This document shows positions 23,872 through 52,308 of a DNA stretch of 64,000 bases, in pieces. Source of the stretch: Fibrobacterota bacterium (GTDB lineage: Bacteria > Fibrobacterota > Fibrobacteria > UBA5070); contig JAKPQQ010000116.1 of NCBI GenBank assembly GCA_029557215.1, positions 10,103-74,102 on the forward strand. The letters run 5' to 3'. Under the pieces are notes generated by a model. That model was not told the DNA's origin. It was given only the letters and a program-made list of their open reading frames with translations, and ran no database searches. Within the stretch, counting starts at the first letter, position 1; the number at the start of each line of letters is the position of its first letter. Made by a program: the position numbers and the translations under genes.

Positions 23872-24139
23872 CCTTCGGCCGAGCTGCCATGGGGCCCGCG
23901 CGCGCTCGGATGGCTGGCGTGTAAAGCCTTGTCACCACCTGAGTTGCAAGAGCGACAGTGCGAGGTGCGAATAAATGAACGCAGACAGCGTTCAGTTGGA
24001 ATGCAACTAAATTTGGCCTTGTTGGAAACTTCGAGAGTTGAAATTCGAAGAATCCTCCCGATGATCCAAAAATGGATCATGGGATCGCCAAGTACAGGGT
24101 AGCTTGTCCGCACCACCCGACCACTGGAGCTTTCTACCG

Positions 24140-34744: not shown

Positions 34745-36468
34745 CTGCGCACCCTGTCGACGATCGGGCGCCCGATCGAATCCGGCGATGCGAACTCGAA
34801 GACCTGGTATTGGAACGAAATCCGCTTGGCGCCGAATTCCTTGTCCAGGCTCTCGATGCGGACGATGTCGAATTCCTTCCCGAACCGCTTGAGGGTCGCG
34901 GTGGTCCTGTCGATCGAGATCAGGAAGCGGTTGGTCGACTCGTCGACCAGCACCGGAGAAAACTGGAAGATCCGATTGGACGCAAGCTTCTGGAGCGGTT
35001 TGCGTTCGTACTCGATCGCCACGAAGAGCGATCGGATGTCGGCCCCGACGAGTTTGGGCGTGCTGTGGTAGCTCGAGACGATTTCCGGCTCGATCAGGTT
35101 GTCGCCGTCCAGATTCAGGATCAGTTCTCCCGCCGCGATCAATTCGTAGGGGGTCTTCTGGCGGCCGACGGAAGCAGGTGCAGGCGGCGTCCCGTGGTTG
35201 TGGTCGGCGCGGGCGAAGGCGGCGGATGTCCCGGCCGACACGCCCAACCCGAAGCTCGTCTGCGCCGATGGCGCTCCACCCGGCACCGGCACCACGGTGG
35301 CGGGAAACGGCACGCCTTTCCATTTTCCGTCGACGTATCTCAGGATGTCGTTGGGCGATGGCGTTTCGGGAGCGACGGGTTGCTTTTGAAGTCCCACGAC
35401 GGTCGCATCTCCCAGCGAACCCGACAGGTCGCCTCCCGCAGCCGGGAGCACGGGAGGGGCCACCGGGGCCGCGACCATTTCCTTGAGGTCCTTGGCCATT
35501 TCCTGCACCGCGCGCAGGCTCAGGAGGTCGGGGCGCTCGGAATGATCCAGCACCATGGTTCGCGTGCCGTCGAATACCCATTTCGCGTTCGCGTTCTTGA
35601 GCAACGGGATCCAAAGCCCGGCCAGGGCCAAGGTGTTCGCGGCGGGACGGGACGCGTCGGAGCACGAGACCGACCAGAGCGGACGCAGTTCGGTGTTCCA
35701 AAGGCGCAGCACCGAACGCAGCAGTTCCTCCTTGTAGAACAGGTCCGCCGGCGGCGCGCCTTCCAGGAAATCGGACGGGACGATCGTCGATCCCGCCGGG
35801 CGTTCGATCCATTCCTTCGCGGCCTTGCGGATCGCCGTCAGGATCTGTTCTTCGGTGCAGGTCGTGGTCTGGTCGATGCCGATCGAAAGGGTCCACTGGA
35901 AGAAGTCGCGGATCGCGTCTTCTTCCGTCTGATCGGGTCGAGACCACGAGAGATCCAAAAGGAATCCGTCCTGGACCCGCGACGGCGCCGTGAGCTTGTC
36001 GTCGGTGCGGCACGGGTCTCCGGGAACGGGGACGTCGGCGCATTTGCTTTCGCAGAACGACAGCGTCACCCACGCCTTGGCCCAGTCGCCGGTTTGTCCC
36101 GACGGTGCGCCGGAGAGCTTGAACGTGTCCGCGTCGAGCTCCCCGACCCAATTGGCGACGTTGCAGCACTGGTCGGAATCGACATGCACGAGCTTCCCGT
36201 TGGGGAGCAGCGCGGCGCCCGGGCCGGTGCGCAGACCGACCACGAGGTCTCCCGGCTGTTCGGGAGGATCGATCGAGACCCGCAGCCCCGACAAGGTCCC
36301 CCAACCCAAGGCCAGCCTCGAGAGGGCTTCGCGGTGCGAACTGTGGTAGGTCGATTCCTGCACGAAGTCGTCGACCCCGAGGATCATGCCCAGGGAGTAG
36401 TTGACCCTGCGGCAGGGATCCACCGCGGCGGTGGACGTTCCGTTCTGGCATCCGCAACCCATGTTCAT
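34741..36468 (-). CDS. CIS fibre-like protein, Cys-rich N-terminus, 575 aa
   Basis: ATG at 36468 overlaps the gpI-like stop (ATGA). Begins MNMGCGCQNG...DPC. Then NYSLGMILGVDDFVQESTYHSSHREAL...GTLSGLRVSI, the same adaptor motif as the next gene. Further Cys pairs at SDQCCNV and FCESKCADVPVPGDPC. Confidence 0.65.
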   Translation of the reverse strand: MNMGCGCQNGTSTAAVDPCRRVNYSLGMILGVDDFVQESTYHSSHREALSRLALGWGTLSGLRVSIDPPEQPGDLVVGLRTGPGAALLPNGKLVHVDSDQCCNVANWVGELDADTFKLSGAPSGQTGDWAKAWVTLSFCESKCADVPVPGDPCRTDDKLTAPSRVQDGFLLDLSWSRPDQTEEDAIRDFFQWTLSIGIDQTTTCTEEQILTAIRKAAKEWIERPAGSTIVPSDFLEGAPPADLFYKEELLRSVLRLWNTELRPLWSVSCSDASRPAANTLALAGLWIPLLKNANAKWVFDGTRTMVLDHSERPDLLSLRAVQEMAKDLKEMVAAPVAPPVLPAAGGDLSGSLGDATVVGLQKQPVAPETPSPNDILRYVDGKWKGVPFPATVVPVPGGAPSAQTSFGLGVSAGTSAAFARADHNHGTPPAPASVGRQKTPYELIAAGELILNLDGDNLIEPEIVSSYHSTPKLVGADIRSLFVAIEYERKPLQKLASNRIFQFSPVLVDESTNRFLISIDRTTATLKRFGKEFDIVRIESLDKEFGAKRISFQYQVFEFASPDSIGRPIVDRVRR

Positions 36469-39290
36469 TCTCCTTCTTTTCTGCCCAGGGCATGATCCAG
36501 CCGGATTCTGTCGTCCGGTGGAGGTTCGTAGGGAATTCTGGTGGACCCCACATGGCTCGAGCCGAGCCTGAACCAGGGGGCGAACGCGTCGGCGCGGCTT
36601 CCCGCGTCCAGCACGGTGTCCAGTCCAAGGCGCGCCTGGCCCAGCCTGAACAAGGCCCAGTACGGCTCGACGTCGAAGCTCGTGTGGGCGGGCTTTTCCA
36701 GCGCGGCGATGCGGCGGGCGTGGTCGCGCCTGCGCTCGAAATCGGCCGGGTCGTCCAGAGGCCCCGCCGTGGGGATCAGGACGCGGAACCGATGCGCCAG
36801 CGAGTGGATCGGTTCCAGGAAGGTCTCGAACACGATCCAGTCGCGCAAGGCTTCTTCCTGGTCGGGGACGCGCGCGAAGGGCGGGATCGATTCGAAGGAC
36901 GCGCAATCTCGCTTCCATGCGTTGTTCAACCGCTCGATGTCCAGCCATCTGCGGCGCAGGTATCCCTGCCAGCGTTCCAGCCGGTGCCGGGCCTTCGGTG
37001 GCATCGCGTTCGGATTTCCCAGCCAGTCGACCTTTCTGTTGCCGGTTTCCGACAAAACGGTTTCCGGCAATACTCCGCAGGCGTCGATCGTGTCGCGGGC
37101 GAAGCTGGGAACCAGACCGATCTGTTCCAGGCAGAATCCGGTCCAAAGCGCCTGGAGTTCGGGCTTCGTCTGGAGGATCGGGAATTCCGATTCGTTTCCT
37201 CCGGTGGCTTTCGACCACCTTCGATGCAGCTCCGCGGCGCCCATGGAGGGAGTCCATGCGGCGACGGTGGTGGATTCGGCCGACTCCAGATCCGACATCG
37301 TCTGTCCGGTGAAGGCGGGAGAACGACCGCGCGTCAGGAATCGTTCCACGATCCGGATTCCGAACGGCTGGGTCTGCGACGGGGCGGGAAGCGCGAAATC
37401 CTGGTCGCGCAGGCATTCCGACATCCCGATCCGCAGGGCGAGGATGATCCCTTGCGGGGTTCCGCGGTAGGAGAACAAGGTGGGCGCGTGGCGGATCAGG
37501 AGCCTTCGGCGCCGCTCGTCGAGCGCGGGATCCAGCGCGAGTCCCAACCACCCGGCCAACCAATCCAAGGTGGAGTCGGGAGCGGTGCGGACGTCGAACA
37601 GCGCGGTCGATCCGACGATCCGATCCTCCATGGAGGTGAGCATGCCTTCGAAGTTCGCCAGGAACCGTTCCAGGAAATCCCTGGACGATTCGTCTTCGCG
37701 GTAGATGGGAGGAAGATATTCGTCCACGTACGAGAACCGGGGGTTCCAGACCCGCACGGCATGCAGCGAAGGCGTGCGCATCTCGTCGCATTCCAGGCGC
37801 AACCGCAGTTCCAGGAATCGTCCTTTGATCGATTGCAGCAGCAGCTCCCACGTGCCCTGTCCCTTGCCGGCGTCGGTGGCGATCCCGCTCCAGGGGATCT
37901 CCGATCCCGAACGGCGCAGGACGGGCGCGGGTTGTTCGCGAAACGGCGACGATTCCAGATCGGCCTCGGTGTCGGCGGCGCGGGCGGAGACGACCACCGA
38001 AGATCCAGACGGAATCTGTCCATCCAGCATCACCCGGTGCCAGGCGGTTCCGGGGAGTCCGCCGTCGATCCGCGGCGAGACGACCACGGCCTCGGGCGCG
38101 TGGCGTCTGCGGCGAAGCTCGACCAGAGGAACCCACGCGCCGTCCGACAGGTACCATGCGCCCGACGGCCCGCCGACGAGGTCGATTCCGGCGTAGCGCC
38201 GCAAGGGGAGTTCGCTCGCCGCGACCCGCGCTTCCAGGGTGGATCGGGTTTCTTCCAGGACGAACCTCCACGCCTGGTTGCCGTCTTCCGACACGACCAG
38301 CGCCGCGGGAGAGGACGGGTCCTCCAGATCCACGACCAGGTCGTGGCCGCGCAGGGTGAATGTTCCGTCGGCGCCGCGCAGGACCCCGGAGGCCTGTTCC
38401 AGGGAGACCGATCCCGCGAGGCGCCCTTGGCGGTACAGGGAGATCCGCCCGAACCCGGAGGATTCCCTCCGCTCCAGCACAAGACAGGATCCGTCGGGAA
38501 GCAGATCCACCGCCACGGGATCCCACGAGGCGTCGAGCTTCCAGGGGAGAAGCCGTTCGTCTTTGTCGGGCGCCGGAATCGCCGGGGCGGCCGGGTCGGG
38601 GCCGAACGCGGACGTTGCTGGATCGCGTCGGGGCGCGCCGGTGTCGAGCGCGCGGTCCAGCATCCAGACGACCTTGTCCGTCCGGTCCAGGACCGCGACG
38701 GTGCCGTCGGCCGAGCAGGCCATGTCGTGGATCGACAATTTCCGGGAGCGAGTCCAGTCGATCCTCGTGGGCGGTCCGCCCGCGACCAGGTCGAACAGGT
38801 GGAACCCGGGAGCGTCCCCCGCGATCCCGCACAGCAGGTGGTGTCCCGGAAGCACGGCCAGCCCCGCGAGCGTCGGCGGGGACGGCCGTGGCTCCGATGC
38901 GGGGCGGAACGCCCCGGAACCGGAACCGGTCCGGGCGACGGGGGGCGGCCAGAACCGCGAATCGGATCCGTCGCCGGAATTCGTCACCAGGATGGAAGTC
39001 CTGTCCTGCGAGATCCTGTAGACGTTCCCGAACCGGTCGCGGGCCGCGCTTCGTCGATCGTCCAGCGTGGGCCGGAAGTCGTTGGCCGATGCCTTGAACC
39101 CCTGGGTGCGCGCGGAAAGCTCGAGGGATCCCGATTTGCGGTTCCACGAGACCGGGCAGGCCGCCGCGGGATCGTTCCACGTCTGGTCCAACGTCCTCCA
39201 GGTTCCTTCGGCGGACGACGGCGCGCGGAACCGCCCCCAGTCGTCCTTGCCCAGGAACAGCGCGAACCGGCTGCGGTTGGAATCCCGCAT
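36465..39290 (-). CDS. baseplate protein, P2 gpI / Afp12-like (phage tail protein I domain) with large N-terminal extension, 941 aa
   Basis: ATG at 39290 shares a base with the gpJ stop. Conserved block RFSYVDEYLPPIYREDESSRDFLERFLANFEGML...TLDWLAGWLGLALD...RRRLLIRHAPTLFSYRGT. Confidence 0.8.
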   Translation of the reverse strand: MRDSNRSRFALFLGKDDWGRFRAPSSAEGTWRTLDQTWNDPAAACPVSWNRKSGSLELSARTQGFKASANDFRPTLDDRRSAARDRFGNVYRISQDRTSILVTNSGDGSDSRFWPPPVARTGSGSGAFRPASEPRPSPPTLAGLAVLPGHHLLCGIAGDAPGFHLFDLVAGGPPTRIDWTRSRKLSIHDMACSADGTVAVLDRTDKVVWMLDRALDTGAPRRDPATSAFGPDPAAPAIPAPDKDERLLPWKLDASWDPVAVDLLPDGSCLVLERRESSGFGRISLYRQGRLAGSVSLEQASGVLRGADGTFTLRGHDLVVDLEDPSSPAALVVSEDGNQAWRFVLEETRSTLEARVAASELPLRRYAGIDLVGGPSGAWYLSDGAWVPLVELRRRRHAPEAVVVSPRIDGGLPGTAWHRVMLDGQIPSGSSVVVSARAADTEADLESSPFREQPAPVLRRSGSEIPWSGIATDAGKGQGTWELLLQSIKGRFLELRLRLECDEMRTPSLHAVRVWNPRFSYVDEYLPPIYREDESSRDFLERFLANFEGMLTSMEDRIVGSTALFDVRTAPDSTLDWLAGWLGLALDPALDERRRRLLIRHAPTLFSYRGTPQGIILALRIGMSECLRDQDFALPAPSQTQPFGIRIVERFLTRGRSPAFTGQTMSDLESAESTTVAAWTPSMGAAELHRRWSKATGGNESEFPILQTKPELQALWTGFCLEQIGLVPSFARDTIDACGVLPETVLSETGNRKVDWLGNPNAMPPKARHRLERWQGYLRRRWLDIERLNNAWKRDCASFESIPPFARVPDQEEALRDWIVFETFLEPIHSLAHRFRVLIPTAGPLDDPADFERRRDHARRIAALEKPAHTSFDVEPYWALFRLGQARLGLDTVLDAGSRADAFAPWFRLGSSHVGSTRIPYEPPPDDRIRLDHALGRKEGE

Positions 39291-41566
39291 CAGCAGGTCT
39301 CCGCGACCACGGGCACCGGCACCTGGCGCGAGACGACGCCTCCGGATTCCGTCTCGACTTCCGGCGCGGTCTTGCCGTCGAGCATGGAAAGCGGGAGGGC
39401 GGGGCCGACCATGACGGAAATCGCCGAGATCCACGGGAGCTCGAGTCCTTCCAGGCGAATGCCGTCCTGGTGCTTGGCGGAATCGAGCGATCCCAGCAGA
39501 AGCTGGTCGATCCGCAGGACGCCGTCCTCGCGGGCGGCTTCCACGAGGATCTCCAGGGCGTTGACCTCCTTGCGCAGCGGCCATCCCGATTCCATGACCT
39601 TCGGTCCGCCGTCGGCGGTCGCGGTTTCGCGCACCGGCGACAGATATCGGCGAAGCCTCCGTTCCAACCGGTCCCTCACGTCGGGGGCGGAAAACCCGCC
39701 CGCCACCGTGATCCCGAGGCTCAGACGGATTCCGACATACTTGGGGCCCTGCACGACGATCTCGGTGGTCACCAGGCGGCGCGGATCCAGATGCCTGCAG
39801 ATCGCGTCCAGCATGGTGGCGTCGGGTGTCGGGCGGCCGGGGTTCGCCGCGTCGGCGCGCGGGACCACCATCAGCGTGACGGTTCCGGGAACGTCGCCGG
39901 GAAGGCTCGTGGCGAGGTCGGGGTGCCACGCCGGAACCACGTCGATGCGCGCGAGATCCACACCCGGGGTGGAGCGCGCGATCTCGGCGAAGTCTTCGGC
40001 GGTGACCAGCCGATCCCGGTGGCGCATCCAGCTCGAGACCCGCCTGGATCCGGTCTCCACGCTCTCGCGGTCGGAACCGCCCCAGGTGGCGATCGGGTTG
40101 GTCGGCTTGATGTCCACCGGGAGATCCGGACCCGATTTGATCGAATCCTTGGGAAGGTTCCCCTGCGATCCGGTGCAGGTGTGGTAGCGTGCGATCACCT
40201 TGGTTCCCGCGGCGGGGCGTCTTCCGCGCAGGCCGTCCCCGAACCGGACGGTCCCCGCCGCGGCGTCCACCGCGAAGACGTCCACCGGCCGGTGGTCGAC
40301 GCTGCCGCTGCCGGGAGGCGAGGCGGGATCCGTCCAGCGCACTTCGGGTCCGGCCGCGGCGAGGTCGTCGATTTCCGTCCAGGCTTGTCCGGAATCCGAC
40401 GGCACCACGCGCACTTCCACCGTGGAGGCCACCACTCCCGGGTGCTGGAGCCTGAACTCCTGGTCCGGACCACCGTCGCCCGTTCCCAGCACCTCGTTTT
40501 CCACGATCTTGCGCTGCTCGATCCAGCAGGCGTTGACGCCGGCCCACAGGATGGAAAAATCGGACGAGGTCGACGGCTCGACCCGCAGCCATCCCACCAC
40601 GCGGTCGGCCAGACGGGAATCGTCGAGCGCGGGAGGGAACTCGCCCACGCCGGATTCCAGCGGGTCGATGTCGTCCCAAGGGGAGATGTCCAGATCGGAG
40701 GGATCGGACGGGAGCTGGATCTCCAGCACGTCGGGACCCTGGTGCAGCGAGGTGCCGCCCCGGAAGGGCCGGGATCTCCATCCCGCGACGGCCTTGCCGT
40801 TTTCCGACGTCGCGAAAGGGGTTTCCACCTTCGCGACGGGAGTCGGGTCGTCCAGGCTTCCCGCACCGCGCGTCGCTCCCAGGCTCCGGGGCCGGTCGGC
40901 CAGATGCGGGGCCAGCCCCAGGCTCAGGTATCTGCCCGCCAGATCGCGCCAGACCCGCTTGCGCGCCTCGTCGCGCCCTTGCGCGGAGGGCGCCTTGGGA
41001 AGCAGCAACGCGATCCACAGCCGTCCGTCCACCGTCTGCGAGCCCAGATCGACCGGTGTCCCGCCGTCGAGGATGCGGGTGCGGTAGGTGACCAAGTTCG
41101 GGGTCTTCCGCTTCAGCGAGCGGTAGAGGCTGTCGTAGTACGCGGTCTGCGCGTCGGAAAGCCTGGCCTTCTCCTTGACCATCGCCAGGGCGGCCACGGG
41201 GACCACGTCGATGGCTGCGGCGGTCCGGAACGGGACGGCTCCGGCGCGAAGCTCCATGCCCGCGTCCAATCGGACGGATTCCGTCCGATTTCCGGGATCG
41301 AACGTCGCGATGCCGCGCGCCGGGCGGGCGGGCGAAAGCTTCAGGCCCAGCAGATCGAGGAACTTGGAACGCGCCGCGTCGGGAACGCGGTTGGCGCGGT
41401 ACAGCACGCTTTCGGCCATGAAGGCGAACAGCTCCACCATCGTGACGCCGGGGTCGCTTTCCCCCAGATGCGTCCATTCCGGCGTATGGGCCGGAATCCG
41501 GTCCAGCGCTTCGCGTACCAGGTCCTGGAACCTGCGGTCGTCGATCTTGGGTGCCGGGAAGGTCAT
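39290..41566 (-). CDS. baseplate J-like protein (gpJ/gp6/Afp11-like), 758 aa
   Basis: The N-terminus MTFPAPKIDDRRFQDLVREALDRIPAHTPEWTHLGESDPGVTMVELFAFMAESVLYRAN is the classic Baseplate_J start. GGAG RBS. Confidence 0.85.
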   Translation of the reverse strand: MTFPAPKIDDRRFQDLVREALDRIPAHTPEWTHLGESDPGVTMVELFAFMAESVLYRANRVPDAARSKFLDLLGLKLSPARPARGIATFDPGNRTESVRLDAGMELRAGAVPFRTAAAIDVVPVAALAMVKEKARLSDAQTAYYDSLYRSLKRKTPNLVTYRTRILDGGTPVDLGSQTVDGRLWIALLLPKAPSAQGRDEARKRVWRDLAGRYLSLGLAPHLADRPRSLGATRGAGSLDDPTPVAKVETPFATSENGKAVAGWRSRPFRGGTSLHQGPDVLEIQLPSDPSDLDISPWDDIDPLESGVGEFPPALDDSRLADRVVGWLRVEPSTSSDFSILWAGVNACWIEQRKIVENEVLGTGDGGPDQEFRLQHPGVVASTVEVRVVPSDSGQAWTEIDDLAAAGPEVRWTDPASPPGSGSVDHRPVDVFAVDAAAGTVRFGDGLRGRRPAAGTKVIARYHTCTGSQGNLPKDSIKSGPDLPVDIKPTNPIATWGGSDRESVETGSRRVSSWMRHRDRLVTAEDFAEIARSTPGVDLARIDVVPAWHPDLATSLPGDVPGTVTLMVVPRADAANPGRPTPDATMLDAICRHLDPRRLVTTEIVVQGPKYVGIRLSLGITVAGGFSAPDVRDRLERRLRRYLSPVRETATADGGPKVMESGWPLRKEVNALEILVEAAREDGVLRIDQLLLGSLDSAKHQDGIRLEGLELPWISAISVMVGPALPLSMLDGKTAPEVETESGGVVSRQVPVPVVAETC

Positions 41567-41582
41567 GGGATACTCCGGTGCG

Positions 41583-41990
41583 TCATGACAAGGATTGTCC
41601 GGAAACGGGAACCGACAGCGAGACGCGCTGGAGTGCCCTGGTGGCGGCGAGGCGGTACACGACGACCGCGCGCGCCGATTGCGGATCGGCCGCGTCGGCG
41701 GAAACGTCGACGGATTCGAGATCCACGCGAGGTTCCCACCTCGCGATCGCGTCGGAAATCGCCTTGGCGATCTGGGTGTGGGTCTCGAGCGTGTTCGGCT
41801 GGAACAGGAACCGTCCGAGCCCCGCGCCGAACCCGTGCCGGTTCACGCGCTCGCCCGTCCCCGTGGAAAGCAGGATCCGGATCGACTGCGCGATGTTGTC
41901 CTCGCCCGCCGACCACGCGATCCGGCCGAGCTCGTCGACGCGCGGCGGGAAGGCGATCCCCTTCCCGAACAGTTTGGCGGAATCCGTCAT
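41583..41990 (-). CDS. baseplate wedge protein, GPW/gp25 family (Afp9-like), 135 aa
   Basis: GKGIAFPPRVDELGRIAWSAGEDNIAQSIRILLSTGTGERVNRHGFGAGL matches the gp25 pattern. The ATG overlaps the upstream stop (ATGA). Confidence 0.85.
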   Translation of the reverse strand: MTDSAKLFGKGIAFPPRVDELGRIAWSAGEDNIAQSIRILLSTGTGERVNRHGFGAGLGRFLFQPNTLETHTQIAKAISDAIARWEPRVDLESVDVSADAADPQSARAVVVYRLAATRALQRVSLSVPVSGQSLS

Positions 41991-43972
41991 GCGGTCGCAT
42001 CTCCTTTCCGGCTCTTCACGGGAATCCAGAACATGAAGAACGGAAGCCACTTGAAGACCATGTCGAGCAGGGTCACCATGATGATCAGGATGATCAGGGC
42101 GCAGAGCGTGATGATCGGGATCGACACCACGAGCATCATCCCGAGCTCGTTGCCTTTGGCGCAGGACCCTTTGGGGGGATTGGGAAGATCCTTGTGGAAC
42201 GGCCATGGCAGCACGCTCAGGACCAGATCCACGAATCCGATCCCCTTCATGCGCTGGATCTGGCTGCACATCGTTTCCGAAAGCATGAAGACCGTGTTGC
42301 GGTCGGCCTTGCGCAGGCCTTCGGGAGTGGGGTCCACGGGGAGTCCGATCCGCACCGGGCGCACGGGGGCATCCGGATCGAAGTACGATGCCATCCGGAA
42401 GGGAACCGTGGGAGCGCTGAGCAGCGGTCCATGGTGGGTGCATTCGGGGTGGTCGAGCGCGAGCCGGACCACGTACCAGGCATCGCCGCTCTGGACGGGA
42501 ACATCGACGGGATCCGGCAGCGCCGCGGAGTTGTTCGGATCGAGAAGATCCAGGATGCGATCGCGCAAGGACTCCAGTTCGATGTCGAGTGTCGTGGGAG
42601 TCTCGGACCGCGCGGTGTAGGGTCCACCGGAGCAGCCCGGGAAACAGCCGTGCCTGGGGTCGGCGAGCAGGAACCGGAAATCCGGCAGGGCCTTGGCCAG
42701 CTCCTGGTTCTTGTCTGGAATCGCGGGGAAGATGCACTCCGCCAAGGTGTCGCGGTCGATCTTCCGCAGGCGCTCGACGTTCGTCGTCTTTGAACTCGCG
42801 ATCAGCGCCTGGGCGAGGTTCATGCCGAACCCTTCCTCGACGCGAGCGCTGGCTTGCCAAGCGAGAGCTCGGAGGGAGGCGATCCCGCCATCGCCGGATG
42901 CGTCCTCCCGCAGAGCGGCTTGCACAGCCGGCTTTCCGTATCGCAGAAGGAACTCGCGAAGCTCCGCCAGGATCGACCAGCTCGCGAACTGCAGCTTGGA
43001 TCGGAATCGCCAAAGCCGGTCGGGCTTGATCTGATCCACCCCTTGGGACAGTTCCAGATCGACGTTGCCGTCTCCGTCCTTGGGGGGCTTCATGACATCG
43101 CGGACCGGATCCTTGCCATTGGCGTCGAAACAGCTTTCCGACAACGCTTTCCACGGCCCCAGCACCAGCTTGTCCAACAGCGCTGCCAGTTCCTCCTTCC
43201 GGTCCAGCGAAGTCTTCGTGGAGGCGGGTTTGCGTGCGCCGAACGCCGCGTTCTGGTAGGTTTCCCTGCGTCCGACAGGAACCGTCCCCAGGTACAGGCG
43301 CCGCCCGCATCCGTCGATCTCGTGGTAGTGCGCCTGGAACAACGGCAACCTTTCCTCGCCGTCGACGGGGAGGTCTTCCTTGCCGGGAAGGATCCCGATC
43401 CAACGCGGACTGGCACCGGGAACGAAGGCGGCTTCCGTCCACCCGTCCTTGGCGAATCCAAGACCGTCGAACTCCGGTGCGTCCTTGGTTCCGGCACCGC
43501 TCGAGGGGGGCACCAACCGCCGCACGAGCAACGACACCGATTGGTTGCGGGACTTGTCGACCGTGCGGTCCGGAAATCCCGGACGCGCCGTGCAGGCGAG
43601 GACTCCGGAGACCAGGTAGTGCCTCTGGTGGGCGGGTTGGTAGAGCTTCAAGGCTCCGGTGTCGGGTTTGTCGATCCTGGGCGCGGGCGATCGCGCGAGC
43701 AGCCTGCGGTGCAGCTTGCGGAACGGTCCGGATCCCGTCGACGCGTCCACGGCGAGGAGCGCTTCGCTCCTGCGGCTGGGACCTCTCCAGGTCTCGGGTT
43801 CGGCTTCCAGCGCGGGCAGTCCGCGCGGATCGCGCTCCAGAAGCCCGAACAGTTCCTCCATGAAGGAATCCGTCGCGAACCGCAGGATCCGCGGGCGCGG
43901 CATGTCGTCGTCTTCCGGCGCATCGCCGTTCCAGAACGGGACCGGCGCGGTCCACTTTGCGGGGTGCTTCAT
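41987..43972 (-). CDS. unassigned 661-aa CIS-embedded protein with C-terminal transmembrane anchor
   Basis: ATG at 43972 shares a base with the spike stop. Its stop overlaps the gp25 ATG. Protein-like throughout. The C-terminus LGMMLVVSIPIITLCALIILIIMVTLLDMVFKWLPFFMFWIPV is strongly hydrophobic. No family recognised. Confidence 0.7.
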   Translation of the reverse strand: MKHPAKWTAPVPFWNGDAPEDDDMPRPRILRFATDSFMEELFGLLERDPRGLPALEAEPETWRGPSRRSEALLAVDASTGSGPFRKLHRRLLARSPAPRIDKPDTGALKLYQPAHQRHYLVSGVLACTARPGFPDRTVDKSRNQSVSLLVRRLVPPSSGAGTKDAPEFDGLGFAKDGWTEAAFVPGASPRWIGILPGKEDLPVDGEERLPLFQAHYHEIDGCGRRLYLGTVPVGRRETYQNAAFGARKPASTKTSLDRKEELAALLDKLVLGPWKALSESCFDANGKDPVRDVMKPPKDGDGNVDLELSQGVDQIKPDRLWRFRSKLQFASWSILAELREFLLRYGKPAVQAALREDASGDGGIASLRALAWQASARVEEGFGMNLAQALIASSKTTNVERLRKIDRDTLAECIFPAIPDKNQELAKALPDFRFLLADPRHGCFPGCSGGPYTARSETPTTLDIELESLRDRILDLLDPNNSAALPDPVDVPVQSGDAWYVVRLALDHPECTHHGPLLSAPTVPFRMASYFDPDAPVRPVRIGLPVDPTPEGLRKADRNTVFMLSETMCSQIQRMKGIGFVDLVLSVLPWPFHKDLPNPPKGSCAKGNELGMMLVVSIPIITLCALIILIIMVTLLDMVFKWLPFFMFWIPVKSRKGDATA

Positions 43973-44682
43973 CACCAGATGTTCCCCGCGCCGGGAGTGT
44001 AGGTCGCCGCGATCACCGTGTTGGTCTGCACCGTGTCGGCGCGGACCATCCCGGAGAACTTCGAGATCCCGGAATCCACCGAGACCATCCCCGCCGACAG
44101 GCCGACCTGGCTCGCCGAGATGGAAAGCTTCCCCGAAGTCTCGATCGTGATTCCCGAGGCCTCCATCTTCATCGAGTTCCCGTTGGAGTCGACGATCTCG
44201 ATCGATCCGGGGCCGTCGCGGAGCGTCATTTTCTGACCACCCGGGGTTTCCAGGACCAGGCTTTCCTTTCCGTCCCTGTCGTCCAGGGTCACCTTCACGC
44301 CGTTGCGCGACACGATCGACTTCGCCTCGTTCCGTCCGTCGCCGTCCATCGCCGCGGGAGGCGCGTCCGACCCGTTCCAGAGCGCTCCCAGCACGAAGGG
44401 TCGCCGCGGGTCGCCGCCTTCGAACGCCACCAGCACCTCGTCGTCGGGATCGGGGACGAACCAGGTCCCCCGGTCGGGACCGGCCATCAGCGTCGCGAGC
44501 CTCGCCCACGCCTCGCAGGAATCCGATCCCGTGTCGGCGGCCCACGGAAATCTCACCTTCACGCGCCCCTGGTTGTCGGGGTCGCGGATGTCGACCACGA
44601 CCGCCGTGTGGACCCCGAACCAGCGGCCGCCCATGCCTTGCGGCTGGCGGTCGTCCAGGAACGCATCGAAGGGCCCGCTCAT
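43972..44682 (-). CDS. central spike protein, gpV / gp5 / VgrG-C-like (baseplate assembly protein V), 236 aa
   Basis: OB-fold start GVHTAVVVDIRDPDNQGRVKVRFPW...WARLATLMAGPDRGTWFVPDPDDEVLVAFEGGDPRRPFVLGALWN. A beta-helical repeat tail follows. Confidence 0.85.
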   Translation of the reverse strand: MSGPFDAFLDDRQPQGMGGRWFGVHTAVVVDIRDPDNQGRVKVRFPWAADTGSDSCEAWARLATLMAGPDRGTWFVPDPDDEVLVAFEGGDPRRPFVLGALWNGSDAPPAAMDGDGRNEAKSIVSRNGVKVTLDDRDGKESLVLETPGGQKMTLRDGPGSIEIVDSNGNSMKMEASGITIETSGKLSISASQVGLSAGMVSVDSGISKFSGMVRADTVQTNTVIAATYTPGAGNIW

Positions 44683-45749
44683 GCGGCGTTCCCGATCCAG
44701 GCGCGTTCCACGACGATTTCCGTCCGGAGCCCCGATTCGCCGTCGAACCGGTGTTCGATTTCCACGACGTCCCATTCGCCTTCGAACAGGGGGCCTACTC
44801 CGCGGATCCCGATCCGGGACGCGGGGATCAGCCTCGCGTCGGCGACCGCGACCCCGCGTCCGCGCGCGAACCTTCGCGCCGCGGCCAGGAACCGGGCTTC
44901 GCCCCAGCCCAGGGCTTCCTGGTCGTCGAAGGGCGATCCGTGGTTGGCCGAATCGACCCGATCCCCGAACCGCTCCTGCAGGATGGCGACGCCGGTGCGC
45001 CCCGACGCCGATTCCCTCGCGAGGGCGTCGGACCCGATCCGCCGCGAGATCGCGGCCTTGCGTTCCACATCCCATCCGCTCACGACGAGTTCCGTCCTCT
45101 GGTGCGCAAGGTCGGCGGTGGCGGAAAAGGACATGAGGTTCCGGGCCAGGACCAGATCGAATCCGGCGCCCTGCCTGGACGAGCGCGGCCGCGCGTGGAG
45201 GGTTCCGTCCTGGAACCAGAGATCGGCGTCGCGATGGCGCGCCCGCTCCTGCGCGAACGCGAGGTCGGTCTGGTTGGACTGCACCAGCACGGGATGCGTC
45301 GGCCCCGGCATGTCGATGTCGACCGGGATCCCGTGGTCGCCGGCGATCCGCCGCACGGCGTCGGCGTCGGAGATCCGCTCGAACGACCTCGTGCGCCGGA
45401 CCATCCGCAAGGCCTGCAGGCCGTCGTCGGCGCGCACCACCAGCACGGGCGGCGCGCCCGACGGAAACCGTCCTTCGATGGCCAGGATCCTGCCGTCGAA
45501 CAGCGAACCGTCCCCCAGCTTGAACTCCAGTCGCCGGCCGAAGTCCAGGTCCGCGCCGTCGAACAGGGTCCAGCCCACGGATCCGTCGGGCCGGTTTCCC
45601 CAGTTGGAGAATTCGGCTTCGCAATCGGCGATCCGGCCTTCGGTCCTGCGGATCGAGAGCGAAATCAGCCCCGACTCCAGTCCGGCCTTGCGGGTACCGT
45701 CGACCAGGATCTCGGGCCGCGACGAAACCACGTTGTTCGTCCCCGCCAT
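44679..45749 (-). CDS. baseplate hub, phage late control gene D (gpD/gp27/VgrG-N-like), 356 aa
   Basis: Length, position before the gpV-like spike and gpD-like blocks (ILVDG...LESGLISLSI..., LVVSGWD). ATG at 45749. Confidence 0.75.
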   Translation of the reverse strand: MAGTNNVVSSRPEILVDGTRKAGLESGLISLSIRRTEGRIADCEAEFSNWGNRPDGSVGWTLFDGADLDFGRRLEFKLGDGSLFDGRILAIEGRFPSGAPPVLVVRADDGLQALRMVRRTRSFERISDADAVRRIAGDHGIPVDIDMPGPTHPVLVQSNQTDLAFAQERARHRDADLWFQDGTLHARPRSSRQGAGFDLVLARNLMSFSATADLAHQRTELVVSGWDVERKAAISRRIGSDALARESASGRTGVAILQERFGDRVDSANHGSPFDDQEALGWGEARFLAAARRFARGRGVAVADARLIPASRIGIRGVGPLFEGEWDVVEIEHRFDGESGLRTEIVVERAWIGNAA

Positions 45750-45919
45750 CAGCAGCTTCTCCCGCGCAGCGAACGCTCCGCTTCCCTCGCCAGCAGCACG
45801 CGCGTCTCGTCGGCGCGCTGGCGGGGTCCGGGCTCCTCCATCCTTCGCGCCGCGCCGGGGTCGGCGGGGGCGGCGACGGATTCCGGCAACATCTCGAACT
45901 GGTCGACCACCACGGGCAT
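45749..45919 (-). CDS. small conserved-position CIS protein (56 aa), possibly DUF5908-like
   Basis: ATG at 45919, 2 nt after the upstream stop. The MPVVVDQFEML start resembles the MPIEIxEL start of DUF5908 proteins (from memory). The rest of ORF 45749..46396 is R-rich shadow. Confidence 0.4.
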   Translation of the reverse strand: MPVVVDQFEMLPESVAAPADPGAARRMEEPGPRQRADETRVLLAREAERSLRGRSC

Positions 45920-45921
45920 GT

Positions 45922-46620
45922 TCAGCGCCTCCCCTTCATGGTCGAACCCATGTCGACGAGCGATCCCGCTCCCGGGAACCGGGGGTTGTCGACGTCGTTG
46001 GCCTTGGCGACTTCCGTCCAGTCCTTGCCTGCGCCCTGGGCCGCGGATTGCAGGGTCTGGCCTTCGCGCATGGGCGTCTGGAACCCGGTCTTGGGGCCTC
46101 CGGCGCGCCCTGCAGCGTCGAATTTCGTCTTGAGGATCTTCTGCTGGCTCAGTCCGATCGAAATGCTCGAGCGCAGCGGCTTTCCTTCGCTCGAGAAGTA
46201 TTCGAGCGATTCCTCCACGGAATCCACGAGCCCGTCGAACAGAAGCGATCCCCACAGGAAACGGATCTTGGGAGGCAGCCACTTTCCCGATCCTTCGGGA
46301 GTCTCCTTGGGCTGGATGAAGAACAGGACCTCTTCGGTCATGCGGCGGACGTCGTCGACCGCGCCGCCGTCGCCGGGCGCGGTGGCGTCGAACCACAGCT
46401 GCACGGAAAGCTTTGTGGTCCCCGATCCCACGAATTGCCGGCCCGACGTCCCCTGCGCCTGGTCGCCGCCTCCGGAGGAGTTGTCCTTGATCTGGTTGGC
46501 GTACTGGAGCTTGAGCGTTTCCGGATTGAACTGCACGGAAACTTCCTTGCCGTTGGCCTTCTTGCCCGACATGTCGTCGTCCAGCTCGATCAATCGCGCC
46601 TTGGCGGGATTGCCGCTCAT
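45922..46620 (-). CDS. tube-initiator-like protein with C-terminal LysM-like motif (Afp7-like), 232 aa
   Basis: ATG at 46620 overlaps the tube-2 stop (ATGA). Tube-like N-terminus VSVQFNPETLKLQY. C-terminus EGQTLQSAAQGAGKDWTEVAKANDVDNPRF fits a LysM pattern. Confidence 0.7.
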   Translation of the reverse strand: MSGNPAKARLIELDDDMSGKKANGKEVSVQFNPETLKLQYANQIKDNSSGGGDQAQGTSGRQFVGSGTTKLSVQLWFDATAPGDGGAVDDVRRMTEEVLFFIQPKETPEGSGKWLPPKIRFLWGSLLFDGLVDSVEESLEYFSSEGKPLRSSISIGLSQQKILKTKFDAAGRAGGPKTGFQTPMREGQTLQSAAQGAGKDWTEVAKANDVDNPRFPGAGSLVDMGSTMKGRR

Positions 46621-47078
46621 GTTCCGGCCTCCGGAAAACGGATGTCGAAGCGTTCGTAGGCGATCTGCAGTTCCTCCACGGCGATGGCGCCGTCCTTGGC
46701 GTTGAGCGCGGGGGCCTTCAGCTTCACGGGAAGGCACCGCGACAGCAAAAACCTGACATTTTCCGTCTGGTGGTCGGAAGAAACCACCACGACCTCGACC
46801 TCCGCGCGAAGCCCGGGATCGGCCAGCGAATCGGCCATCCAGCGCCACAATTGCCGGCTGTCGCCCGACATGCCGCGCCGCAGCGTGAGCTGGCCCCATG
46901 TGGAAGGCCCCGCGAGCCGGATCTGGCGGTCGTTGCCGCCGCCTTCGCGGATGGTCTTGATCTCCATGTTCATCTCCAGTCCGTCGCATTCGGCGAACGA
47001 TCCCGCCACCAGGGCTTGGCGCGCGCCCGAAGGGACGATCTCGACCAGGAAGTTGAAGGCGGAAAAGGGCCGGATCAC
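46617..47078 (-). CDS. tail tube protein 2 (T4 gp19-like, Afp5-like), 153 aa
   Basis: GTG at 47078 overlaps the sheath-2 stop (GTGA). FSAFNFLVEI...FAECDGLEMNMEIKTIREGG...ELQIAYERF parallels tube 1. Confidence 0.85.
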   Translation of the reverse strand: MIRPFSAFNFLVEIVPSGARQALVAGSFAECDGLEMNMEIKTIREGGGNDRQIRLAGPSTWGQLTLRRGMSGDSRQLWRWMADSLADPGLRAEVEVVVVSSDHQTENVRFLLSRCLPVKLKAPALNAKDGAIAVEELQIAYERFDIRFPEAGT

Positions 47079-49756
47079 GCGCGTTCCTCCACGAGCAGGC
47101 CGCCGCCCTTGGCGCGCAAGGTGACCAGAAGGAACGATAGCGGGAGCGAAGGCGCGACGCGGAGTTCGACCATCGCTGCCCCTTTGTCGGAATCCGTCTT
47201 CACGTCCACGCGGTACGACGATCCTTCGCCGGATCCCCGCATCGCCCCGCGCATCCAGAGGGAGCGCAAGAGGTCGCGGAACGTGCGTTCCAAGGAACGT
47301 TCCAGGGCGCGTCCGGCGGGCTCGAACACGGATTCCACCCCGTGCCGGTACGCCAGACGGCGCAGGAGGCCCAGGAACCGGCGGACGTTGGCGGGGCGCA
47401 GTTCGGGATCGTCCGACAGCGTGTCGAACCACGCCGGCGAGAAGCCGCGGGCCGACCGGACGACGGGACAGATCCGCGTGTCCACGAGCCCCGGGAGGTC
47501 GGCGACGTCCGTCGCCAGGTCGGTGGCGACGACGCCTTCCAGAGGCACGCCGCCCGGCGCGACCCACGGGGAACCTTCCGAGGCGACGCGCGCGAACAGG
47601 CCCGCGATGGATCCGTCGGGCGGGACGGGATTCGTCGCGTCCCGAGCCGGGACGATCCAGGGATGCGCCAGGATCCCGTGCGAAAGCGTCCTCGATTCGT
47701 CGGCGCGCAGCGCGGGAACGTCCGCGATGCCGTCGGACGCGGGAACGGGATCCATCTTCAGGAGCAGCCGGTCGGCGTGCGCCTTGGCTTCGTCCCACCG
47801 GAAGGATCGGGGGAGCGACAGGATCGCCAGGGTGTCGCCGCGCGCGGCCGCGACGCGCAGAAGCGCGCGCTGCACGCGCACCAGGTCGGAGGTGTCGGCC
47901 AGTGTTGACGGATATTGTCGTTGAACGCGAACGAACCCCGTGGCGGGGGCCCGGACCTCCACGGGGTACGACCACGCGCCGGCCTTCCCGCCTTGGATCG
48001 AGCGGACGCGGTACCAGCGCGTGCCGCCGTCGGCGTCGCGCCGCACGAACCGGTTCGATTCCCCTTCGAAGATCGTGTTCCATGCGCCGTCCTTCGATTC
48101 GGCGCTTTCCTGCAGTTGGAACGAGGCGCCGGGGACGGGGTCCGTCCAGCGGAGCATGAAGGTCCCGTCCGGGCCGGGGGGGACGCCCTTGATGAACCGG
48201 GGGTGCTTGAGGTCCTCCAGCACGCACGGATGGAACGTCCCCGTCCGTTCCGGATGGTCGGACGGGTGCGGATGCACCGTCCACCACGAGTCGGGAGACG
48301 TCTTCCTGGTCCACCGCGGATGCGACGCGTCCGGGGCCGCGACCAGGGTGGCTTCCTCGGGCGCGCCGCCGCCCACCTGCGCCAGCAGCGCGTGGATGCC
48401 GCGCAGCGGGACCGGATCGGGGGTCAGCAGGATGAATTGCTCGGCGCTCGGGAGCTGGCGCTCGGTGGGTTCGCCGCACAGTCGGGCATCCAGGAACAGG
48501 TCGCTGGAGAACCTTCCCAAGCCGTCGCGTTCGAGCGCGGGGGCCGTCGATCGCCGAGGTCCCGAAGGCGCGATCGATTCCGGGTCGTCGCACAGGGGCA
48601 GCAGCAAGGCGCCCGGATCGTCCGACCGCAGGGGGAACGACGACGGAAGATCCGACGGGAACGCGTCGGCGGCGAAGGTCCCGCTGGATGCCTCCCGGAA
48701 CGGGCCGCTGGTGGCCAGTTCATGCCGGATTCTGTCCACCTTGCGGATTCGCTTCCCGATCGCCTCGCCAAGCCTGGCGGCGACGTCTTCCAAGCCGATT
48801 TCGCGCAGATCGGCCTGCAGCCGCAACGCGGATCTCCCCCGACGGGTCCCGGACGAAGATGCGAGGCGTTCGCGCACCAGCATCCAGGCTTCGCGGCCGT
48901 CCCAGACGATCCGCCCGACCGTCCCCGGCGACGGCGCGTGATCGGCGTCGACTTCGAACCGGATCCCCACGCGTCCGGACGCGATCCAGTCGATGTCCGC
49001 GGGCCTGTCGACTTCGGCGGCGCCGTGGACCGGCGACGGATAACGGATCCGCGCTTCGCCGCGGCCGCGGAGGTCTTCTTCGCGGACGAGCCGCACCGAC
49101 GGCCCCATCCGGGTCTTCGCGATCGCCGACAGCGCGCCTTTGTCTTCGTCCACGGAAACTTCCGTCGCGAGCATCGTCGCGCGCAGGCCCGGTTCCAGCT
49201 CGGCCACCAGCAGGTCGCCCACCGCGACATCCCGCACCGTTTTGACGGGAATCGTCAAAACAAGACCCGATTCCGGATCCGCTGCGGCCTGCTGGATGTC
49301 CAGCGGAACCGATTCGGAACGCAGCGACAACCCCATCGCGTCGGACCACGATCCGGGATCGCGTGCCTCCAGGATCCGCGGGGCGATCTTCCAGTTTCCG
49401 TCAAGAACGGCTCCGACCGCCGAAGGAACCTGGAATTCGCCGTGGACCGCGGTGGCCTCGTCCAGCACGCGCACGATCCAGCAACGACGACCGCCGTCGG
49501 CGAAGAATCGCGCGACGGTGCCGTGCAGGAGCGAACGGAGCGGACGTCCCGCCGCTTCGTCGAAGGCGAGATCGAAGGCGATCCCGAACACGCCTTCGAA
49601 CGCGGCCAAGCTGTCCACTGCCACGGGTTTCCCGACAGGACCCGCCTGCGCGAATCCCGCGAACATCGCGATGTCCATCCGGGGAAGGATTTCCCCCGGA
49701 TCGGACGCGGCGATGTCGAACCGGACTCCCGGCGGTCGTCGGACAGCCATCGTCAT
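47075..49756 (-). CDS. giant sheath-like paralogue (Afp4-like role?) with large internal insertion including an Fn3-like segment, 893 aa
   Basis: ATG at 49756 overlaps the tube-1 stop (ATGA). N-terminus PGVRFDIAAS...FAGFAQAGPVGKPV and C-terminus HPWIVP...DGSIAGLFARV...ANVRRFLGLLRRLAYRHGVESVFEP...LRVAPSLPLSF align by eye with sheath 1. The middle of about 450 aa is unrelated. Confidence 0.75.
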   Translation of the reverse strand: MTMAVRRPPGVRFDIAASDPGEILPRMDIAMFAGFAQAGPVGKPVAVDSLAAFEGVFGIAFDLAFDEAAGRPLRSLLHGTVARFFADGGRRCWIVRVLDEATAVHGEFQVPSAVGAVLDGNWKIAPRILEARDPGSWSDAMGLSLRSESVPLDIQQAAADPESGLVLTIPVKTVRDVAVGDLLVAELEPGLRATMLATEVSVDEDKGALSAIAKTRMGPSVRLVREEDLRGRGEARIRYPSPVHGAAEVDRPADIDWIASGRVGIRFEVDADHAPSPGTVGRIVWDGREAWMLVRERLASSSGTRRGRSALRLQADLREIGLEDVAARLGEAIGKRIRKVDRIRHELATSGPFREASSGTFAADAFPSDLPSSFPLRSDDPGALLLPLCDDPESIAPSGPRRSTAPALERDGLGRFSSDLFLDARLCGEPTERQLPSAEQFILLTPDPVPLRGIHALLAQVGGGAPEEATLVAAPDASHPRWTRKTSPDSWWTVHPHPSDHPERTGTFHPCVLEDLKHPRFIKGVPPGPDGTFMLRWTDPVPGASFQLQESAESKDGAWNTIFEGESNRFVRRDADGGTRWYRVRSIQGGKAGAWSYPVEVRAPATGFVRVQRQYPSTLADTSDLVRVQRALLRVAAARGDTLAILSLPRSFRWDEAKAHADRLLLKMDPVPASDGIADVPALRADESRTLSHGILAHPWIVPARDATNPVPPDGSIAGLFARVASEGSPWVAPGGVPLEGVVATDLATDVADLPGLVDTRICPVVRSARGFSPAWFDTLSDDPELRPANVRRFLGLLRRLAYRHGVESVFEPAGRALERSLERTFRDLLRSLWMRGAMRGSGEGSSYRVDVKTDSDKGAAMVELRVAPSLPLSFLLVTLRAKGGGLLVEERA

Positions 49757-50205
49757 TCCATCTCGAGTCGTTCGTAGGCCAGCACGAGCTCTTCCATGGC
49801 CACGTCGGTCCCCTTGGCGTTCAGGGGGCCGCTCGTGTGCTTGATGATCCGGGCCCGCATGAGCTTCCAGGTCTGCACGATCTGGGTGTGGTCCTCGTTC
49901 TGCAGATGGATCACCACGTTGCGCATGGCGTTCTGGTCGCCGTTGCGGATCTGGTTGAGCCAGTTGTACAAGGACAGCGATCCGATCACGCCGCGCTTGA
50001 GGGTGACGTCGGTGGACTTGTTCAGCCCCGTCACCTTCATCACGCTGTTCTCCTTGCTGTTGCCGTTGCGGTATTCGGCCACGGTCACTTCCATGCCGAT
50101 TCCGCTGATCTCCTGGAAGCCCGCTTCGGGGCCATCCGTGGTTCCGGTTCCCAGATCCACCAGGAAATTGAACTGGACGTAGGGTCTTTCGCGAAGATTT
50201 GCCAT
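49753..50205 (-). CDS. tail tube protein 1 (T4 gp19-like, Afp1-like), 150 aa
   Basis: ORF in the track. ERPYVQFNFLVDLG...FQEISGIGMEVTVAEYRNG...EELVLAYERL. AGGAGA RBS. Confidence 0.9.
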   Translation of the reverse strand: MANLRERPYVQFNFLVDLGTGTTDGPEAGFQEISGIGMEVTVAEYRNGNSKENSVMKVTGLNKSTDVTLKRGVIGSLSLYNWLNQIRNGDQNAMRNVVIHLQNEDHTQIVQTWKLMRARIIKHTSGPLNAKGTDVAMEELVLAYERLEME

Positions 50206-50235
50206 TTTCCGTCTCCTGTATCCTGTGTGTTCCGG

Positions 50236-52287: not shown

Positions 52288-52308
52288 GGAGGACTCCCTG
52301 GGTTTGGT

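Follow-up and report, generated by a model that had tools for sequence, protein, structure and literature searches.

A near-invariant membrane-type segment in an uncharacterised protein encoded beside the spike gene of a PAAR-less contractile injection system

The window analysed here is a stretch of 64,000 nucleotides from contig JAKPQQ010000116.1 (assembly GCA_029557215.1) of a bacterium of the Fibrobacterota, and it carries on its minus strand a locus for a contractile injection system (CIS). Between the spike gene and the gene of the baseplate wedge protein gp25 lies an open reading frame (ORF) for a protein of 661 residues, called X below. X belongs to an unnamed family and ends in a membrane-type hydrophobic segment, and the locus around it has no detectable PAAR domain. 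The features that matter most for X are the following, with positions counted in the window.

41987..43972, minus strand: gene X, 661-residue protein of an unnamed family (translation, third-position GC content, homologues)
42017..42145, minus strand: membrane-type hydrophobic segment of X, residues L610-V652, then the basic tail KSRKGDATA (hydropathy, AlphaFold2 helix)
42023..42415, minus strand: conserved C-terminal module of X, residues 520-650 (residue conservation, tblastn)
43972..44682, minus strand: gpV/gp5-type spike, 236 residues, with an OB fold and a beta-helix (PF04717, E 4e-27)
43975..44022, minus strand: invariant C-terminal tail of the spike, 16 residues, NTVIAATYTPGAGNIW (conservation)
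41583..41990, minus strand: gp25 baseplate wedge, 135 residues (PF04965, E 1.6e-22; also a gene call in the identical contig)

Gene X is real and encodes an uncharacterised protein of 661 residues. In its frame the GC content at third codon positions is 0.76-0.87 along the entire ORF, which is why the ORF is taken as coding, and the minus-strand translation of 41987..43972 contains LGMMLVVSIPIITLCALIILIIMVTLLDMVF and KWLPFFMFWIPV. Coupling to both neighbours is seen directly: the ATG of X (43972-43970) and the TGA of the 236-residue Phage_base_V gene upstream of it (43974-43972) have one base in common, and the TGA of X (41989-41987) overlaps the gp25 ATG at 41990 (ATGA). An earlier note on this DNA had described such overlaps and deduced co-expression with the spike and gp25; the coordinates confirm the former and the overlaps support the latter. 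It had also remarked on locally AT-richer DNA at the end of the gene, and the GC content is indeed 0.55-0.60 over the part coding for the hydrophobic tail, compared with about 0.65-0.73 on either side, because of the Ile, Leu, Phe, Met and Lys codons of this tail. A 145-residue ORF at 41563-42000 (minus strand, ATG at 42000) was considered as the gp25 gene and rejected as spurious, since it is not in the right frame and matches nothing in Pfam; the true gp25 is the 135-residue frame.

The hydrophobic run that had been noticed at the C-terminus was confirmed. The segment L610-V652 has a Kyte-Doolittle (KD) hydropathy of 3.08, the Hessa-scale free energy, summed position-independently, is -4.6 kcal/mol for residues 612-636 and +11 for the next best stretch, and AlphaFold2 (AF2) predicts a single long helix over residues 610-647. 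Among the structural gene products of the locus, X is the only one with a strongly hydrophobic segment (KD ≥ 2). A hydropathy scan of X found no N-terminal hydrophobic or signal-peptide stretch. With no signal peptide and one span at 610-652 of 661 residues, X therefore has the architecture of a tail-anchored protein.

This segment lies in the most conserved part of the family, the C-terminal 130 residues. The mean frequency of the commonest residue is 0.82 in residues 520-650 versus 0.50 in residues 1-519, a region that is moderately conserved and includes variable stretches which tolerate large insertions. In addition to the hydrophobic segment, the module carries the motifs FDPDAP.RP.RIGLP…LPWPFHKDL…KG.C. 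Conservation within the segment was measured on 145 representatives of clusters at 50% identity, in which every position of the motif G..CS.SIPIITICA is 88-100% conserved. The G, S, P, T and W of the segment reach 100% each, the I, A and F 99% each, the three Cys 93-94% each and the D 92%, and the consensus reads G-[ML]-[IV]-C-S-L-S-I-P-I-I-T-I-C-A-L-I-L-L-x-I-x-V-x-L-L-D-x-x-F-R-W-x-P-x-F-x-x-C-F-P-x-P-G-[LF]-K-G-K. Variability along the segment has no significant helical (100-degree) periodicity (p 0.24-0.45), so that the segment appears constrained on all sides and a lipid-facing stripe on the helix was rejected; a weak period-2 signal in its second half was not robust (p 0.02-0.14, depending on the scanning window). 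Such conservation is atypical for a passive anchor, and points to an element that is tightly oligomeric, buried in protein or active on membranes.

All 265 family proteins retrieved have exactly one hydrophobic segment, followed by a C-terminal tail of 12 residues (median), and the net charge around it is -0.4 before and +2.5 after. Three sub-lineages of X can be distinguished: a long form of 650-720 residues, a short form of 520-600 residues, and a form in which the segment is internal and about 100 residues follow. The last is represented by two divergent members (L112, 6640-8350, and L115, 1830-3600). In L115 the N-flank is positive and the C-flank negative, as expected for an N-in/C-out orientation. 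Its extension is repeat-like and rich in Gly, Asp, Ile and Val, and could reveal which side of the membrane the C-terminus faces; the extensions of L112 and L115 have no Pfam match that would indicate a compartment. The N-terminal and middle regions of X evolve faster, with 32-39% identity versus 61-69% for gpV. In the most divergent forms, nothing can be recognised beyond the SIPIITICA segment and a handful of N-terminal motifs (…LYQP.H.R..LV…C…G.P…), and the C-terminal module is the only part of X that tblastn still recognises in the most divergent sub-lineages.

The family is large. A word-indexed search returned at least 306 homologues, all annotated as hypothetical and none with a Pfam domain, and a profile search matched 1,640 representative clusters (50% identity) at E ≤ 1e-3, 692 of them at E ≤ 1e-30. 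In data with one genome per species, at least 523 genomes from more than 10 phyla encode a relative of X. The carriers include Fibrobacterota, Burkholderiales, Acidobacteriota/Pyrinomonadaceae, Bacteroidota, Verrucomicrobiota and Planctomycetota, as well as Chloroflexota, Desulfuromonadaceae, Gammaproteobacteria, Myxococcota and Kryptoniota. Cultured strains such as Ramlibacter cellulosilyticus USB13, Variovorax sp. J22P240, Aquabacterium parvum B6, Piscinibacter defluvii SH-1 and Caballeronia novacaledonica are also among the carriers. Some of the nearest relatives (58-72% identity) come from metagenome-assembled genomes (MAGs) of Fibrobacterota.

The position of the gene was followed in the best 80 loci among these genomes, and strict synteny was observed directly. 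gpV lies immediately upstream of the X homologue in 79 of the 79 loci not truncated there, and gp25 and then gp6 follow it in 80 of 80. In a collection of viral contigs, a search with the motif of the spike tail found 20 loci, each with an X homologue directly downstream (20/20). The order gpD-gpV-X-gp25-gp6 is thus kept in all loci examined, 80 genomic and 20 ‘viral’, and divergent sub-lineages among them also keep X between gpV and gp25. Gene tables give the same 16-gene order without PAAR for Caballeronia, for a Pyrinomonadales MAG and for the contig of the window itself. The earlier note had set this position beforehand as a test of X and had named homologues mostly outside CIS loci as evidence against its proposal; in each of the loci inspected, the homologue does lie between spike and gp25. 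Its view that X had been inserted in the locus did not survive: because the position is the same throughout, X is better described as an ancestral core gene of a lineage spread over more than 10 phyla than as a local insertion. Judged by gene content and order, X is a fixed core gene of a widespread PAAR-less CIS lineage, always between spike and gp25.

A phage origin was considered and set aside, as the 20 ‘viral’ contigs show only CIS genes in the same order, over up to 18 kb each, in a comparison in which head genes were not searched for. Longer family members (833-1052 residues) were considered as Rosetta-stone fusions and rejected; they have no extra Pfam domain, and the added length contains no identifiable fused domain such as gpV. 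One apparent X-gp25 fusion (P0237) has a 107-residue extension (residues ~490-596) that matches the start of GPW_gp25, and is probably an artefact of a frameshift or read-through. In some loci, inserts of about 500-560 nt separate X from gp25 and break the translational coupling (L061, 7953-8455; L066, 8121-8678; L069, 8130-8630). No credible ORF was found in these inserts, nor in any of the occasional X-gp25 gaps outside the window, which measure 250-560 nt.

The fold of X offers no relative either. The AF2 model (66-sequence alignment; pLDDT 78, pTM 0.65) consists of a mixed beta/alpha part (residues 1-230), a helical middle part (233-475), a short beta unit (499-527), and low-confidence helices (550-587) that precede the long hydrophobic helix. 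In Foldseek searches with this model no PDB match fell below E 0.6 and no BFVD match below E 0.5, and there was no family match in Pfam, NCBIfam or PHROGs and nothing relevant in sequence and profile searches of the PDB. The earlier statement that no family can be recognised therefore holds. In these searches there was also no match to gp6, gp7, gp10, gp53, TssF/G/K or Afp/Pvc11-12 as baseplate or hub proteins, including the gp7/gp10-like or PAAR match that the earlier note had named as evidence against its proposal, and no match to an enzyme. In the absence of any fold, sequence or profile match, X is not a recognisable relative of gp6, gp7, gp10, TssK or PAAR, nor a recognisable enzyme. An Afp14-like tape measure was also rejected for X, given its mixed beta/alpha model and the presence of another ORF, of 495 residues, at the Afp14 position by the AAA+ ATPase gene.

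PAAR was looked for in several ways. A Pfam scan at E ≤ 0.01 found no PAAR domain in any tiled gene of the locus (24876-53705) or in the flanking genes, so its absence, which the earlier note had reported, was confirmed, and a PAAR fusion or a PAAR gene elsewhere in the locus was rejected. At the same threshold X itself has no PAAR match in Pfam or NCBIfam, and Foldseek against the PDB found no PAAR-like fold (a small cone-shaped beta structure) for it, with no match at E < 0.6.

The spike next to X has a blunt gp5-type beta-helix and no apex domain. Among PDB sequences it is closest to 7aef chain q, which we take to be AlgoCIS, and to All3320 (7b5h) from the thylakoid-anchored CIS (tCIS) of Anabaena, in both cases to the gp5-like half. 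The spikes of both systems are capped by the PAAR-like protein Cis10 (SalCIS paper). Beyond the OB fold, the spike of the window has no PDB match of an apex type. A self-sharpened P2-type apex was considered as the reason for the loss of PAAR and rejected, since the spike contains a single His, lacks the HxH motif of such an apex and resembles gp5/VgrG-type helices. Its C-terminal tail (…SYTPGAGNIW-COOH) is the most conserved stretch of gpV (0.92), exceeding even the OB fold, and persists in the most divergent sub-lineages, where the OB domain itself has strongly diverged; the motif is absent from every solved spike sequence of CIS and type VI secretion systems (T6SS). The last 16 residues of the spike and the C-terminal module of X are the most conserved elements of the gene block, and they co-occur in every lineage sampled. 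This co-conservation is circumstantial evidence that the two work together, and falls short of proof of contact. The invariant tail may serve as a peptide for docking or form a tip of its own.

The rest of the locus was annotated with Pfam, NCBIfam and PHROG scans, and housekeeping-type genes flank the operon.

24876..53705, minus strand: whole CIS locus, ~29 kb
39290..41566, minus strand: gp6/Baseplate_J, 758 residues (PF04865, E 7e-11; TIGR02243, E 1.9e-72)
44679..45749, minus strand: gpD/gp27-like hub, 356 residues (Phage_GPD, E 1e-5; NCBIfam VgrG_rel, E 1.4e-20, below its cutoff)
24104-24874, plus strand: flanking HAD hydrolase gene, boundary of the locus
53869-57546, plus strand: flanking gene for a glycan-binding protein, boundary of the locus

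The genes follow one another in the order Pvc16_N cap, 260-residue protein, sheath (683 residues), gp19 tube, second sheath (893 residues), gp19 tube and CIS_tube; then a 56-residue ORF, the gpD-like hub, the gpV-like spike, X, gp25, gp6 and gp7; and finally proteins of 573, 878 and 495 residues, an AAA+ ATPase and an eCIS_core+nuclease toxin. The gpD-like hub and the gpV-like spike together correspond to a split VgrG, the gp7 gene is Tail_P2_I/CIS12-like, and the two fibre-like proteins of the locus have weak N-terminal CIS13_fam matches, both below the family cutoff.

Several of these genes deserve a remark of their own. The 893-residue protein (47075-49756, minus strand), between the two tube genes, has no Pfam match and a PHROG match to ‘tail sheath’ (E 4e-17); going by this match it is a second, enlarged sheath paralogue, of 890-1010 residues in other loci. 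The 56-residue ORF (45749-45919, minus strand), between the CIS_tube and gpD genes, is preceded by a GGGAGG-type ribosome-binding site. It has no family match and is too short or diverged for tblastn; a gene of 56-57 residues is called at the equivalent position in the Caballeronia and Pyrinomonadales loci. Between the Pvc16_N cap and sheath genes lies a 260-residue gene (52309-53091, minus strand) without a Pfam match, and a gene of about 260-280 residues is conserved between cap and sheath in other loci. The 495-residue ORF (30274-31761, minus strand), directly upstream of the AAA+ ATPase gene, has no family match; its place is that of afp14 in Afp, and it may be the tape measure of this lineage. 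The only sizeable non-coding gap of the operon (31762-32107, ~346 nt, low third-position GC) contains a single sigma-70-like promoter match (minus strand, 32030-32002), upstream of the module formed by the 495-residue, AAA+ ATPase and toxin genes, which suggests a separate transcription unit for loading and cargo. The putative cargo (1163 residues, 24876-28367, minus strand) has an N-terminal eCIS_core domain (DUF4157), a weak Endonuclease_NS_2 match near the C-terminus, and a moderately hydrophobic stretch at residues ~644-730.

This gene content fits subtype IIb of the extracellular CIS (eCIS), an assignment that we infer from criteria given in the text of Chen et al. (2019; PMC6899500) rather than from phylogenetic placement. 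In the locus, afp8 is split into a gp27-like ORF (356 residues) and a gp5-like ORF (236 residues), there is no afp10/PAAR, there is a single afp11 (one Baseplate_J/TIGR02243 gene), and afp12-like and afp13-like genes are present (one Tail_P2_I/CIS12-like gene and two weak CIS13_fam genes, respectively). According to the same survey, afp10 is absent only from subtype IIb, and each subtype of lineage II has two or three unnamed conserved genes without a recognisable domain (Chen et al., 2019; PMC6899500). Gene X is not named there, and neither its membrane segment nor its position or function is described. The earlier idea of an undescribed CIS component thus holds for the protein, which has been neither named nor described, and does not hold for its setting, as the absence of PAAR and the existence of unnamed subtype genes had already been reported (Chen et al., 2019; PMC6899500). 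No description of X or of its membrane segment was found in the literature searched.

Other CIS are associated with membranes through proteins that differ from X. In the thylakoid-anchored CIS of Anabaena, a C-terminal transmembrane helix of Cis13 anchors the machine, and deletion of this helix results in free-floating particles (Weiss et al., 2022; PMC8894136). Cis13 and X are both CIS proteins with a C-terminal feature of transmembrane type; however, Cis13 is small, forms trimers, resembles a tail fibre and sits at the baseplate’s periphery, whereas X has 661 residues and is encoded beside the spike. Moreover, X has no CIS13_fam match, unlike two other genes of the locus (weak matches), and its segment is far more conserved than that of Cis13. 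CisA of Streptomyces, Hbor_38620 of a haloarchaeal T6SS-like CIS and SalCis19 of the Salmonella salamae CIS are clade-specific membrane proteins of CIS clusters that have been linked to membrane association or firing. SalCis19 combines a Sec signal with three transmembrane helices and a glycoside-hydrolase domain in the periplasm, and PAAR is retained in its system; X, by contrast, lacks both a signal peptide and a hydrolase domain and has a single hydrophobic segment. Hbor_38620 has six transmembrane helices. The genes for CisA and Hbor_38620 lie outside the core block, and none of the three proteins is encoded between spike and gp25; it is by their descriptions, not by sequence comparison, that X is set apart from CisA and Hbor_38620. 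No solved CIS membrane protein among the PDB chains resembles X in sequence profile or fold.

Comparison with spike-tip proteins is equally instructive. PAAR proteins (Afp10/gp5.4) are reportedly encoded near the spike and gp25 genes and cap the blunt beta-helix of gp5 or VgrG. X occurs exactly where PAAR is missing, but its size is about six times that of PAAR, it bears a membrane segment, and it has neither evident three-fold pseudo-symmetry nor a Pfam or fold match. The prePAAR/Rhs effectors of T6SS are said to carry hydrophobic helices at the spike tip that are thought to insert into the target membrane. These effectors are themselves variable cargo, have N-terminal transmembrane helices on a PAAR domain and depend on DUF1795 (Eag) chaperones, none of which applies to X and its locus.

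The reading that we tentatively prefer, while granting that it is somewhat short of probable, is that X is a spike-proximal protein whose C-terminal segment resides in the cytoplasmic membrane of the producing cell and which takes the place of PAAR. X would be made together with the spike and gp25, and its N-terminal part of about 600 residues, in a protein without a signal peptide, would stay in the cytoplasm at the site of baseplate assembly and join the hub or the baseplate. The single C-terminal segment would then insert into the producer’s cytoplasmic membrane, which is suggested by its strong hydrophobicity, its synthesis in the cytoplasm, and the lack of a signal peptide and of a dedicated chaperone. 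The conserved membrane-proximal module may engage the blunt, PAAR-less end of gpV with its invariant tail (…YTPGAGNIW), a docking suggested by the exclusive association of X with a spike of this kind, and the particle would thereby be held spike-first against the membrane. Several copies would probably pack their hydrophobic segments into a tight oligomeric bundle that serves as a minimal ‘port’ and not as a passive anchor, and firing would drive the spike through the site of this bundle, in an anchored mode like that of T6SS or tCIS. There is precedent for a membrane-bound mode, because clade-specific membrane proteins (Cis13, CisA, Hbor_38620, SalCis19) repeatedly accompany membrane-bound CIS. 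The two roles proposed in the earlier note, a membrane tether and a spike-mounted tip, may then be one and the same: a spike-proximal protein that is itself embedded in the membrane. It is possible, though we regard it as doubtful, that the PAAR-less lineage uses an undescribed firing mode in which copies of this one protein form an oligomeric transmembrane bundle to which the tip of the spike is docked beforehand. With the same reserve, a single gene would in this way replace PAAR as well as the membrane complex of T6SS, and the G..CS.SIPIITICA segment would be the gate or port by which the spike leaves the producer or enters the target membrane.

Several observations weigh against residence in the producer’s membrane. 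The near-invariance of the segment on all faces is unusual for a lipid-exposed anchor, and a buried or pore-forming element would fit equally well. By the positive-inside rule, a tail charge of +2.5 with an N-flank of -0.4 disfavours a simple N-in/C-out anchor; bacterial tail-anchored proteins with basic tails do exist, which softens this objection. The synteny counts all stem from a single lineage and lack phylogenetic independence. Furthermore, the locus keeps the hallmarks of an eCIS (fibre-like proteins, a Pvc16 cap, an AAA+ ATPase and a DUF4157 toxin), which leaves room for a released extracellular particle.

On such a released particle, X could ride the tip of the spike in place of PAAR, with a shielded segment that is driven into the membrane of the target cell on firing, where it would act as a fusion peptide, a pore former or an anchor of the spike that lets the tube open. 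We consider this unlikely, although several observations speak for it: the absence of PAAR and the presence of X go together on a blunt spike end, conservation on every face of the segment recalls viral fusion peptides and not passive anchors, the basic C-terminal tail would end up in the cytoplasm of the target and satisfy the positive-inside rule, and the eCIS hallmarks include fibre-like proteins and a loaded toxin. However, a stretch of about 40 hydrophobic residues, once synthesised in the cytoplasm, would be expected to enter the cell’s own membrane or to aggregate, and Pfam scans of the locus found no chaperone of the Eag/DUF1795 type. A tip of 661 residues would also be very large, neither the model nor the fold searches revealed a PAAR-like domain with three-fold pseudo-symmetry, and some members have about 100 residues beyond the segment. 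A hub or cage protein surrounding the spike inside the baseplate, comparable to the cages of clade Ib, would bury its hydrophobic C-terminus and never meet a membrane. Spike cages are known in AlgoCIS and SalCIS, a protein-buried element would account for conservation on all faces, and the strict coupling to the spike and gp25 genes is of the kind seen with stoichiometric subunits. Yet the hydrophobicity (KD 3.08, -4.6 kcal/mol) and length of the segment match those of a bilayer span, an aromatic belt (W642, F640 and a W/F cluster) and a basic tail border it in the manner of genuine spans, and X has no structural similarity to a solved cage or baseplate protein, all of which makes this arrangement improbable.

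Other explanations place X outside the mature machine or among its cargo. X might serve in biogenesis alone, as an assembly platform bound to the membrane or as a factor for release or lysis. Its membrane-type segment would suit such a role, as would N-terminal and middle regions that evolve faster than the neighbouring structural genes and tolerate large insertions. An accessory role of this kind nevertheless seems quite improbable, as overlapping starts and stops within a hub/wedge block are typical of stoichiometric structural subunits, the size and architecture of X are unlike those of a holin or spanin, and conservation of the gene extends to all the loci examined in this lineage. That X is a membrane-targeting toxin attached to the spike, a cargo similar to VasX, is suggested by the adjoining spike gene and the hydrophobic C-terminal region, but is highly improbable: effectors differ from locus to locus, but X is universal in the core, keeps its synteny and has an ultra-conserved C-terminus; gp25 is directly next to it, with no adjacent immunity-like gene; and a separate eCIS_core+nuclease toxin occupies the usual cargo position.

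CIS are sorted by the relation of their baseplate to a membrane into free eCIS, T6SS, thylakoid-anchored and cytoplasmic systems, and with each newly found anchor protein a further mode of action has come to light. What is new here is a CIS with an undescribed and unusually conserved membrane component beside the spike; the PAAR-less subtype was already known. No Pfam or NCBIfam model covers the X family, and it is therefore invisible to surveys based on domains, although it is large, extends over many phyla and marks the only CIS subtype reported without a PAAR tip. If X tethers or gates the spike, thousands of CIS loci annotated as ‘extracellular’ in soil and freshwater bacteria may act from the membrane. 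If this is true, the G..CS.SIPIITICA segment would be a new, testable membrane-active element of possible use in engineered injection systems.

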